Shown here: positions 20,243-21,690 of the stretch, one piece after another
Layout: each line of letters starts with the position of its first letter
How positions within the stretch are numbered: position 1 is the first letter of the stretch
IMG/VR virus record: IMGVR_UViG_3300009790_000004
Location: 45,783-109,782 of that record
Length of the DNA stretch: 64,000 bases
Direction: 5' to 3' (one strand)
DNA from: a virus
Position numbers and translations under genes: made by a program
The notes under the pieces: generated by a model
Databases searched by the model: none
Told to the model about the DNA's origin: nothing
The model's input: the letters and a program-made list of their open reading frames with translations, nothing else

Positions 20243-20689
20243 ATGCCAACTGCATCTACAGCGAAAACAACAACAACTCGCAAAAGACGCACACGCAAAA
20301 CTACCACTCCAAAATCAACTGCTAAGGTTATTAAGGAGATTCAAGCAGTTTTAGATGCACCAACACCTAAATCTCTTGATAAGGTACAACCAACAGTTAA
20401 AAAGACACCTGTAAAGAGAACTCCTAAAGCAAAAGTTTCCACTCCTAAATATCAGCAACCTGTTGAGATTAAGAAAGTGACTGAAACTAAAGCAACTAAA
20501 GTTCGTCCTGCTAAACCAAATCTAACCATTGCAGATTACACTGCTGATATTAAAGTTAGATGGGAAATTCATCAGTGGGAAACACAAGAACTTTGGAATG
20601 ATGTAGTTAAAGGTTATAACAATGCTAAACCATTTGTTATTAAATCTGTTGATTATGTCAAGGAGTCCTACAACAGAGCATTTAACTAG
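20243..20689 (+). CDS. Basic Lys/Thr/Pro-rich early protein
   Basis: Histone-H1-like low-complexity N-half (TTRKRRTRKTTTPK) and a helical C-terminal domain. Confidence 0.75.
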   Translation: MPTASTAKTTTTRKRRTRKTTTPKSTAKVIKEIQAVLDAPTPKSLDKVQPTVKKTPVKRTPKAKVSTPKYQQPVEIKKVTETKATKVRPAKPNLTIADYTADIKVRWEIHQWETQELWNDVVKGYNNAKPFVIKSVDYVKESYNRAFN

Positions 20690-20745
20690 ACCAGTTAACA
20701 AAGTGTCACCCAACCCCTTCACAGGGGTTTTTTTATTGCTATAAT
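20690..20745 (+). promoter_or_regulatory. Early promoter with dyad and stem-loop
   Basis: ACCAGT-N6-AGTGTC (20690-20707), hairpin, extended -10 TGCTATAAT ending at 20745. Confidence 0.8.
20712..20734 (+). terminator. Rho-independent terminator embedded in the promoter
   Basis: AACCCCT-tcac-AGGGGTT followed by a T run. Confidence 0.7.
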
Positions 20746-20751
20746 AAGAAT

Positions 20752-20964
20752 GTTGAGGGATATGTGGTTCCTATGCCCGAAAACTCACCTGACGGTAACT
20801 GATTCGCTCATCCGCAGTAATTGAGTTAGTAGGGGTTCAGGTGTAAGCGATTCCCATAGGGTAAATTTGGGCATAGTAGGTGAAACCTCTGTTGATGCCC
20901 CACTCCCTCAACTGCTGCATGTCCCTTTGGTGGTTTCAGACATGGAGGCGATAGGAAACCACCA
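20752..20964 (+). ncRNA. Candidate highly structured non-coding RNA (~210 nt)
   Basis: GC-richer island with no credible ORF, starting 7 nt after TATAAT; several long complementary helices and pseudoknots (detailed in findings). Confidence 0.75.
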
Positions 20965-20985: not shown

Positions 20986-21690
20986 ATGAATTCCACACTC
21001 GCTGGCAAAAAAGCAAAAGCAGATGGACACAAATATGAGGTGGATTGTGTTGCAATGTTAAATAAACTCTTCGGTGGCGATCATGCTACTGATGGGAGAC
21101 CACAGACTAAAGTAGATGTATATGATAAGGAAGGAGTTAACACTTATTCAGTCAAAAATGTATCAAAAAACCACACTCAAGTGGCATTATTGTCCAGTCA
21201 AAAGTTTATAGATCATTTCAATCTTACTGATTCTGGATGTGAACGATTCATCAATATGTTCTTTGGATATTATAACAAAGAACTACAATCTATTGTTGAA
21301 AGTAAGCATCCAGAATTGTCTCTAAGTGATGCTGAGATAAGACAAAATAGGGTCTATAAGAATAACATATCAGATAGTATTATAGATGAGTTCTTAACAT
21401 TTATGAACTCAAATAAGATAGAGATATTTGATATTATTGTGAGGCGAGGGTTCAATGGTGATGCAGTTAATCATATAATATGGAGGAATAAAATAACAAC
21501 TTCTGTTAATATTATAGATGTTGAATCCCTTGCTTCATTGGTAGAAAATGGTATTTGGAAAATAAATAATACTACATTAGAGTTTAGAACTGCTGATAAC
21601 ATTAAACTATTTCATTTACAAATGAAAGGAAGTGGCAAGAAATATAATAGTGGTTATCATGGTATGATGTTTCACATGTATTGGAGTTAA
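20986..21690 (+). CDS. PD-(D/E)XK endonuclease, type II restriction enzyme-like (MspI/HinP1I-like)
   Basis: GKKAKADGHKYE, TKVDV, YSVKN, HTQV and LFHLQMKGSG parallel the G..E / KTD / SxK / QV / LQxKG motif series. No methyltransferase in the window. Confidence 0.65.
   Translation: MNSTLAGKKAKADGHKYEVDCVAMLNKLFGGDHATDGRPQTKVDVYDKEGVNTYSVKNVSKNHTQVALLSSQKFIDHFNLTDSGCERFINMFFGYYNKELQSIVESKHPELSLSDAEIRQNRVYKNNISDSIIDEFLTFMNSNKIEIFDIIVRRGFNGDAVNHIIWRNKITTSVNIIDVESLASLVENGIWKINNTTLEFRTADNIKLFHLQMKGSGKKYNSGYHGMMFHMYWS

Follow-up and report, generated by a model that had tools for sequence, protein, structure and literature searches.

The stretch of DNA analyzed here, a 64-kb window that forms part of a 109.8-kb IMG/VR viral contig whose nearest named relatives by BLAST are the Prochlorococcus myoviruses P-SSM2 and P-SSM5, contains between a sigma-70-type promoter and a predicted nuclease gene an interval (20752-20964) with a GC content of 0.43 to 0.49, set in flanks of 0.25 to 0.37, and the question raised by this locus is what that interval encodes and whether it has anything to do with the nuclease. 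An earlier note had read it as a single multi-pseudoknot RNA. Comparison with related phage loci indicates instead that it is a genuine structured RNA, folded from the plus strand and present in no RNA catalogue that we searched, made up of two independent modules, A and B, the second of which occurs mostly without the first. The locus is laid out as follows.

20243-20689, plus strand: upstream gene of 148 aa, Lys/Thr-rich, ending before the terminator-like hairpin.
20712-20736, plus strand: intrinsic-terminator-like hairpin (7-pair stem, 20712-20729) followed by a T-run; ends the upstream gene.
20718-20745, plus strand: sigma-70-type promoter, with -35 TTCACA (20718-20723), a 16-nt spacer, TG, and -10 TATAAT (20740-20745).
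20752-20912, plus strand: module A, a three-way-junction RNA supported by covariation, RNAalifold, and a covariance model.
20913-20964, plus strand: module B, an H-type pseudoknot, with 18 distinct copies compared.
20986-21690, plus strand: HinP1I/MspI-like gene of 234 aa, with a predicted PD-(D/E)XK type II restriction endonuclease fold.

The RNA had been credited with a promoter of its own, and this is readily recognized: TTCACA-16-TATAAT has 11 of 12 consensus matches and a TG ahead of the -10 box, which ends at 20745, and the interval under study begins 7 nt further on, with the predicted +1 at about 20752. The terminator-like hairpin overlaps the -35 box, a layout resembling the PeSL cassettes considered below. 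Module A usually begins 6 to 7 nt behind a -10 box, so that its closing helix starts at the predicted +1, as had been proposed, and this helix covaries among relatives. The arrangement is common in the family: in 74 of 105 module A elements, a -10-like hexamer ends 4 to 10 nt (mode, 6) 5' of the first paired base, compared with 5% of control positions; in the remaining 31 elements (about 30%), other folded RNA modules precede module A, which is then not at +1. No terminator was found in the window between the folded RNA and the next gene, and the leader is, as far as can be read from the DNA, the untranslated folded head of an early transcript that runs on into that gene. Each of three studies contributed an RNA library with contigs that cover modules A and B, for example, 20832-20964 and 20832-20910, and one contig bridges 20945-21125, into the nuclease gene. 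This material consists of contigs only, which carry no starts, ends, strand, or levels and may include DNA, and stretches devoid of such cover, such as most of the nuclease gene, carry no meaning; the contigs are compatible with transcription and cotranscription and prove neither. Just 5' of the terminator hairpin, at 20701-20709 and about 30 nt upstream of the -10 box of module A promoters, lies a word of the form (A/T)GTGTCAC, CTGTCAC, or CTGGCAC that is conserved in the same place in most related loci and might act on these early promoters as an activator site or in the manner of an UP element.

The conserved elements of module A, from its first base to its last, are the following.

20752-20760/20904-20912, plus strand: helix P1a, 9 bp, from the first to the last base of module A.
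20761-20763, plus strand: 3-nt bulge between P1a and P1b.
20764-20767/20900-20903, plus strand: helix P1b, 4 bp, GUGG/CCAC, covarying as part of the closing helix.
20770-20775/20855-20860, plus strand: helix P2, 6 bp, enclosing hairpin P3 and strand J3/2.
20776-20778/20832-20834, plus strand: P3, which carries a variable insert.
20835-20854, plus strand: J3/2, the nearly invariant 20-nt core strand.
20861-20869, plus strand: J2/4, a 9-nt joining strand (GUAAAUUUG), with alignment columns 71 to 78 invariant or nearly so.
20870-20872/20897-20899, plus strand: P4, with an inner hairpin (20878-20880/20886-20888) and the loop UGAAA.

In a seed alignment of 29 short forms of module A, for which the structure was written by hand, 97.8% of cells were paired and 12 pairs were changed on both sides, compared with at most three two-sided pairs when partners were slid, and none of 500 shuffles reached the observed values. 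In P2, every cell of this seed was paired and four of the six pairs covaried. RNAalifold, unaided, returned the helices of the written structure. A covariance model built from this alignment and run over the loci matched 98 elements, the window copy scoring 110 bits (E = 1e-27). Among 93 distinct sequences, 95.7% of 2,393 cells were paired and two-sided changes were found in 22 of 30 pairs, giving a covariation score of 0.308 against 0.04 to 0.09 for slid partners, with none of 500 shuffles as high. G-U cells exceeded A-C cells by 79 to 19, an excess that identifies the plus strand as the folded one, and all syntenic genes lie on that same strand. The test of covariation among homologues that the earlier note had proposed therefore speaks for a real RNA, and the AGG-UGAAA-CCU hairpin that it had picked out is the inner hairpin of P4.

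The core strand J3/2 varies at only two or three positions among elements found via P4 alone. It has a candidate hairpin of its own, P3b (GG/CC plus GU/AU, loop AAGCG), which is predicted and whose pairs never vary. Folding of the single sequence gave an MFE z-score of only -2.26, and the MFE fold was rejected, as it uses a window-specific 11-bp pairing that the comparison contradicts. Two further contacts were considered and discarded: a loop-junction contact, UUCA/UGAA, from J3/2 to the P4 loop, for which U-to-A/G variants in J3/2 are uncompensated, and pairing of "UUCGCU" loops with the AGCGA of J3/2 in trans or in cis, for which both matches in the phage's own genome lie inside coding regions.

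The least constrained part of module A is the insert in P3, which spans 13 to 230 nt across members, some relatives carrying a loop of 10 to 12 nt in its place. In the window, it has the following form.

20779-20831, plus strand: variable insert in P3, a 53-nt two-stem hairpin entered via a GAA/AGUA internal loop.
20782-20787/20822-20827, plus strand: outer stem of the insert, covarying, with CAUCA/UGAUG in relatives.
20789-20795/20812-20817, plus strand: inner stem of the insert, CUGaCGG/CCGCAG with a bulged A, covarying, with a 16-nt loop.

The internal loop is loop-E-like by sequence. This insert type is common to six loci, in which both stems covary, and the outer stem is the AACTCA/TGAGTT helix already recognized from the single sequence. 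Other helices proposed on that basis did not survive comparison. The 11-bp helix 20771-20781/20866-20876 had a covariation of 0.004 against a shuffle mean of 0.015; CATAG occurs twice by chance here, and the copy that covaries in relatives is 20856-20860, paired with 20771-20775. A proposed ACTG/CAGT pairing (20799-20802/20815-20818) gives way to the inner stem CUGaCGG/CCGCAG, and the two cross-pairings that had suggested pseudoknots within this region, CACCTGA/TCAGGTG and TCGCT/AGCGA, fall in the variable insert and are not conserved, each being kept in two of the six loci with the window's insert type and absent from all other insert types and from all short forms.

The pseudoknot proposed for the 3' end (20918-20923/20939-20944 and 20928-20937/20955-20964) had both of its stems right, the second with one covarying pair, and it constitutes module B.

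20915-20916 plus 20918-20923/20939-20944 plus 20946-20947, plus strand: stem 1, covarying strongly.
20928-20937/20955-20964, plus strand: stem 2, with one covarying pair.
Loop 3, plus strand: GCGAUAG, conserved.

Across 18 distinct copies, 98.4% of cells were paired. Stem 1 had 99% of cells paired and two-sided changes in six of eight pairs; in stem 2, the figure was 98%, and one of the 10 pairs showed a two-sided change, the others being invariant or wobble. With partners slid, the paired fraction was 30 to 50%, with at most one two-sided pair, and G-U cells outnumbered A-C cells by 13 to 0. The strands follow one another in the order a-b-a'-b' and both stems are supported across homologues, as befits an H-type pseudoknot.

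A pattern scan found module B in at least 119 viral contigs, and module A was present in only 28 of 100 distinct module B contexts, which makes the two modules independent of each other. What does not change is that, in every module B context displayed, a helix precedes the module, and its 3' strand ends directly against stem 1. This helix takes one of three forms: a hairpin of 16 to 25 nt right behind the promoter, the P1 of module A itself capped with a 4-nt loop, or P1 holding module A. The existence of bare-hairpin forms ahead of module B implies that module A is an insertion into a 5'-terminal hairpin, and the same is seen directly in a contig from a DNA run that fuses 20746 to 20911, with 28 different bases replacing module A. 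Among contexts with a long ATG frame behind module B, the distance to that frame was 10 to 29 nt in 50; in the window, module B ends 21 nt before the start codon.

None of this corresponds to an RNA family known to us from the sources searched. Among the 4,227 models of Rfam 15, none matched anywhere in the whole 64-kb window at its gathering score, and at E values up to 10 the only matches were RMST_2 (16 bits, gathering score 45) and DicF (12 bits, gathering score 48), both at the level of chance; the P-SSM2 leader gave no Rfam match at E values up to 10. The comparison with Rfam that had been suggested as a check thus leaves the novelty of the RNA standing. ARAGORN found no tRNA or tmRNA gene in the window, and together these searches bear out the earlier opinion that the RNA is not a tRNA, tmRNA, RNase P RNA, or manA RNA. 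The exact module A core is absent from 185,579 prokaryote genomes, and the RNA appears to be confined to phages. The core sequences were not found in the papers that could be searched, and papers on cyanophage genomes and on Prochlorococcus noncoding RNAs make no mention of the modules. The single copy of module A, its conserved helicase/DUF7717 neighborhood, its insertion into a 5'-terminal hairpin, and the quantified refutation of a link to the nuclease, all detailed here, are new.

The position of the RNA 21 nt ahead of a nuclease gene had raised the idea that it is an RNA partner of the nuclease, which could mean an antitoxin, a guide, or a regulator. Sequence-level searches with the 234-aa protein gave no Pfam family and no PDB sequence match, and PHROGs placed it in an unknown family; a model built with 32 homologues (pLDDT, 92) matched HinP1I in Foldseek with an E value of 2e-10 and a TM score of 0.72, and MspI with an E value of 1.6e-4. 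The designation as nuclease therefore holds at the level of the predicted fold. The partnership does not: among 78 viral loci with a homologue of the nuclease, module A is missing from the surrounding 2 kb in 71, follows the nuclease gene in 6 of the other 7, and lies directly upstream in only one. The nearest homologues (76 to 81% identity) follow unrelated upstream DNA, some with a promoter directly at the gene. Viewed from the RNA, three loci in addition to the window have a homologous gene directly behind module A (L151/L211 at 53% identity and L153 and L062 at about 26%), and these four amount to about 3% of copies; module A does not consistently precede nucleases, and the first frames downstream of it fall into 34 clusters. 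Adjacency in the window and in those three loci is what can be said for a functional pairing, which we regard as hardly credible; the nuclease gene is, on this comparative evidence, a neighbor of the RNA and not its partner. The orphan nuclease belongs to a family of at least 118 protein clusters, whose genes turn up in widely differing surroundings in contigs of marine phages, in the manner of a mobile cassette.

Type III toxin-antitoxin loci (ToxIN type), in which a pseudoknot-forming RNA made of tandem repeats of about 36 nt lies upstream of the ToxN nuclease gene, had been offered as a parallel. The likeness ends with a pseudoknot RNA upstream of a nuclease gene. Here, the modules are single, are free of tandem repeats, and occur in one copy in the genome; the gene product has a HinP1I-type DNA endonuclease fold and not one of the ToxN/AbiEii type, a difference that had itself been noted; and the pair is not conserved (1 of 78). 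The resemblance therefore fails on every defining feature.

Both modules are widespread among marine T4-like cyanophages, each being found in well over 100 contigs. BLAST matched the middle of the stretch in nine phage records, and the exact 22-nt core word is present in at least 120 IMG/VR contigs. The P-SSM2 copy of module A (AY939844, 56,698-56,818) lies in an unannotated gap between PSSM2_070 and PSSM2_071; no module B was found in P-SSM2. The covariance model located module A exactly once in each of six long records, namely, the contig that contains the window, P-SSM2 (252 kb), a 100%-complete contig of 202 kb, and three contigs of 95 to 116 kb; one contig of 25.7 kb carries two copies. 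Motif scans of the 110-kb source contig gave one module A and one module B, and BLAST matches of the flanks elsewhere in it proved to be protein-coding homologies. Of the 52 module A loci with at least 3 kb of downstream sequence, 44 encode a DNA helicase (phrog_16) or a DUF7717 protein on the same strand no more than 6 kb downstream; the block often includes a zinc-ribbon, DUF6267, or DUF7326 gene, in shuffled order. Given its single copy and conserved neighborhood, module A behaves as an element that heads a conserved early block, with the nuclease among the mobile genes that have entered it. Homologues of the upstream 148-aa gene lie directly downstream of module A or B in loci L114, L094, and L251, a relocation indicative of cassette shuffling around the RNA.

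Such shuffling brings to mind that the modules may be selfish, mobile structured cassettes without a phage function, spread by recombination between early-promoter cassettes and put up with wherever they land in a loop or a leader. Swaps occur exactly at helix boundaries, the modules nest in each other's loops, and the early region is hyperplastic, with terminator-promoter cassettes like the PeSLs of T4-type phages (PMC2839356). We consider this quite unlikely in view of strong purifying selection, evident in compensatory changes in 22 of 30 pairs and in a core that is invariant over at least 120 contigs, of the strand-specific tolerance of G-U, which points to RNA, and of a copy number of one, not many. 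PeSLs are defined as DNA-level cassettes of a promoter and a terminator stem-loop in T4-type phages (Arbiol et al. 2010, PMC2839356). The locus shares with them a terminator hairpin fused to a strong sigma-70-type promoter directly ahead of the RNA, its setting in the hyperplastic early region, and cassette-wise exchange between relatives; this definition takes in 20712-20745 only, and the transcribed, covarying folded RNA downstream falls outside it.

The explanation that best accommodates these observations, to which we assign a probability of roughly 35 to 40%, is one of 5'-end shielding combined with a docking site. The helix would start at the first transcribed base of an early transcript in a P-SSM2-like T4-type cyanophage. 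In this phage, it would carry module A as a large insertion, with a further hairpin plugged into one of the stems of module A, and its 3' strand would run straight into the pseudoknot of module B, 21 nt short of the start codon. Stacked on the pseudoknot, the 5'-terminal helix would hide the 5' end and the leader from host RNases that depend on a 5' end (RNase E and RNase J) and in so doing would set the stability of the early message, and the conserved core of module A would offer an extra place for a partner to dock, either a protein of the host or the phage or a small molecule. A helix at +1 followed by a pseudoknot near the gene is the common denominator of the related loci, which fits sequestration against 5'-end-dependent decay; work by Bouvet and Belasco in 1992 is said to have shown for the ompA leader that 5'-terminal base pairing protects bacterial mRNAs from RNase E.

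Several observations sit less easily with shielding. It leaves the invariant 20-nt core of module A unexplained, since a simple hairpin would suffice, and with one copy per genome, module A is no general device of early transcripts. Relatives that lack module A at the same place show that it is dispensable there. The roughly 30% of loci in which module A is not at +1 also argue against shielding, as does the location of module B ahead of tRNA genes, where shielding of an mRNA makes no sense. From the invariant core and the single copy, we infer that module A calls for a specific partner, be it a ligand, a protein, or catalysis.

Were that partner sensed by the RNA, module A could serve as aptamer in a new riboswitch, or as operator in a leader bound by a protein, responding to some metabolite or other factor in the infected cell and thereby tuning the early helicase/DUF7717 block. 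Its anatomy is that of an aptamer, with a multistem junction, near-invariant joining strands, covarying stems, and a stem of variable length, and it lies in a 5' untranslated region, in one copy per genome, ahead of a conserved neighborhood; the orphan cyanophage motifs manA and wcaG are riboswitch candidates from the same habitat (PMC2864571). Thus, module A has the covarying stems around conserved joining strands that are expected of a riboswitch's aptamer. The expression platform was not found: there is no terminator after P1 or module B in the window and no sequestered ribosome-binding site after P1, and the sole candidate for an alternative pairing does not covary. In addition, the directly adjoining gene varies widely, and related phages swap module A for a bare hairpin while keeping the promoter and module B. 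We therefore view a riboswitch or operator as possible but doubtful, and we are similarly hesitant about the broader proposal that P-SSM2-like phages keep in module A a previously unseen class of RNA, one that senses a ligand or protein or acts as a ribozyme, in one copy at the head of their early helicase/DUF7717 block. If the sensing reading were true, the virus would be reading the state of the infected Prochlorococcus cell and timing its early replication genes accordingly, and the nesting modules would be a natural "plug-in" RNA architecture.

Under a catalytic reading, module A or B would be a ribozyme trimming the leader by self-cleavage. Ribozymes of this kind are common in the DNA of phages, and the modules are compact, pseudoknotted or junctioned, and endowed with a highly conserved core; no Rfam ribozyme family was matched, however, at E values up to 10, and no conserved cleavage-site signature was recognized, and we hold this to be very improbable. 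Alternatively, the modules could be cut from the leader, for example, by RNase E or, where a tRNA follows, by RNase P, and act in trans as stable small RNAs that bind a factor of the host or the phage or act as a sponge for it. The tRNA cluster of T4 itself gives rise to two stable RNAs, C and D, to which no function is assigned. In the leaders compared here, every module has a terminal helix that closes it, and modules turn up in new places or inside one another without change; single copies are gene-like, and short RNA-library contigs cover the modules alone, a weak hint. Module B lies directly 5' of tRNA genes in loci L267, L326, L250, and L295, in the first of these between two tRNA genes and with a promoter, and processing by RNase P at these positions would release it as a small RNA. 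Set against this, the RNA and the gene that follows it in the window have no terminator between them, no processing sites are known, the contigs show neither ends nor levels, and a complementary target was not found; action in trans seems unlikely to us.

The preferred reading, 5'-end shielding with a docking site in the core of module A, has precedents in part. Simple 5' stem-loops, such as that of the ompA leader, stabilize bacterial mRNAs, and 5' stabilizers act against RNase J in Bacillus. The leader described here resembles them in heading an mRNA with a helix that begins at the first (here predicted) transcribed nucleotide and leaves no single-stranded 5' tail. Whereas those stabilizers are simple hairpins, the hairpin of this leader holds a conserved domain of 120 nt and has a pseudoknot behind it. 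Compact viral junction or pseudoknot folds that lie ahead of the RNA to be preserved are also found among the exoribonuclease-resistant RNAs of RNA viruses, such as the flavivirus xrRNA and coremin, where the nuclease is the eukaryotic Xrn1, whereas here it would be the bacterial RNase J or E. The coremin/xrRNA-C consensus consists of a 4-bp hairpin with a YGAD (or YGNNAD) loop, an 8- to 10-nt spacer, and a second hairpin (PMC10520033); compared by eye, this pattern is absent from modules A and B, and no ring topology is evident.

Closer in habitat are manA (RF01745) and wcaG (RF01761), orphan structured RNAs found almost exclusively in marine metagenomes and T4-like cyanophages (Weinberg et al. 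2010, PMC2864571). Like modules A and B, they lie in the 5' untranslated regions of varied genes, are supported by covariation, and have no assigned function. In contrast to these motifs, to which there was no Rfam match at E values up to 10, the RNA described here combines a three-way junction containing a 20-nt invariant strand with a separate H-type pseudoknot, and its modules nest and swap.

Each day, T4-like cyanophages account for the death of a large share of the main photosynthetic cells in the ocean, and the control of their early genes is poorly known. This study provides a strongly conserved, phage-only RNA domain with a precise consensus structure and a cultured model, P-SSM2. Should the core bind a metabolite or a host enzyme, it would represent a new regulatory RNA class from a very abundant group of viruses, and it is unusual that independent RNA modules nest in one another, an architecture that may be of use in designing RNAs. 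There is also a practical consequence for gene calling. The two largest of the 34 clusters of first frames behind module A are spurious, being made up of open frames of 75 to 121 codons that lie over other RNA modules, for example, at 7739-7966 in L055 and at 4552-4917 in L105. In cyanophage genomes, gene callers probably translate the modules into false small proteins of this kind.

Further conserved RNA modules are present in related leaders, at 2385-2470 and 2592-2690 of the P-SSM2 locus (L001) and in many other loci, and they occur 5' of, 3' of, or inside module A. Among them are hairpins that end in GUAAGUCC, a domain that begins UAGAAGCAG, and a long hairpin in which an AGUA/GAA motif resembles loop E (GUGGUAUGACUUAGUACC ... 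GAGCAUACCAC). The word AGGUG recurs at conserved positions in the modules, namely, in J3/2 (20839-20843), in the P4 hairpin (20878-20883), in module C, and in the GGAGGUGUAAGUCC hairpins; it is part of the extended Shine-Dalgarno complement of the 3' end of 16S rRNA, and its recurrence may reflect either chance or a feature for docking of the 30S subunit.
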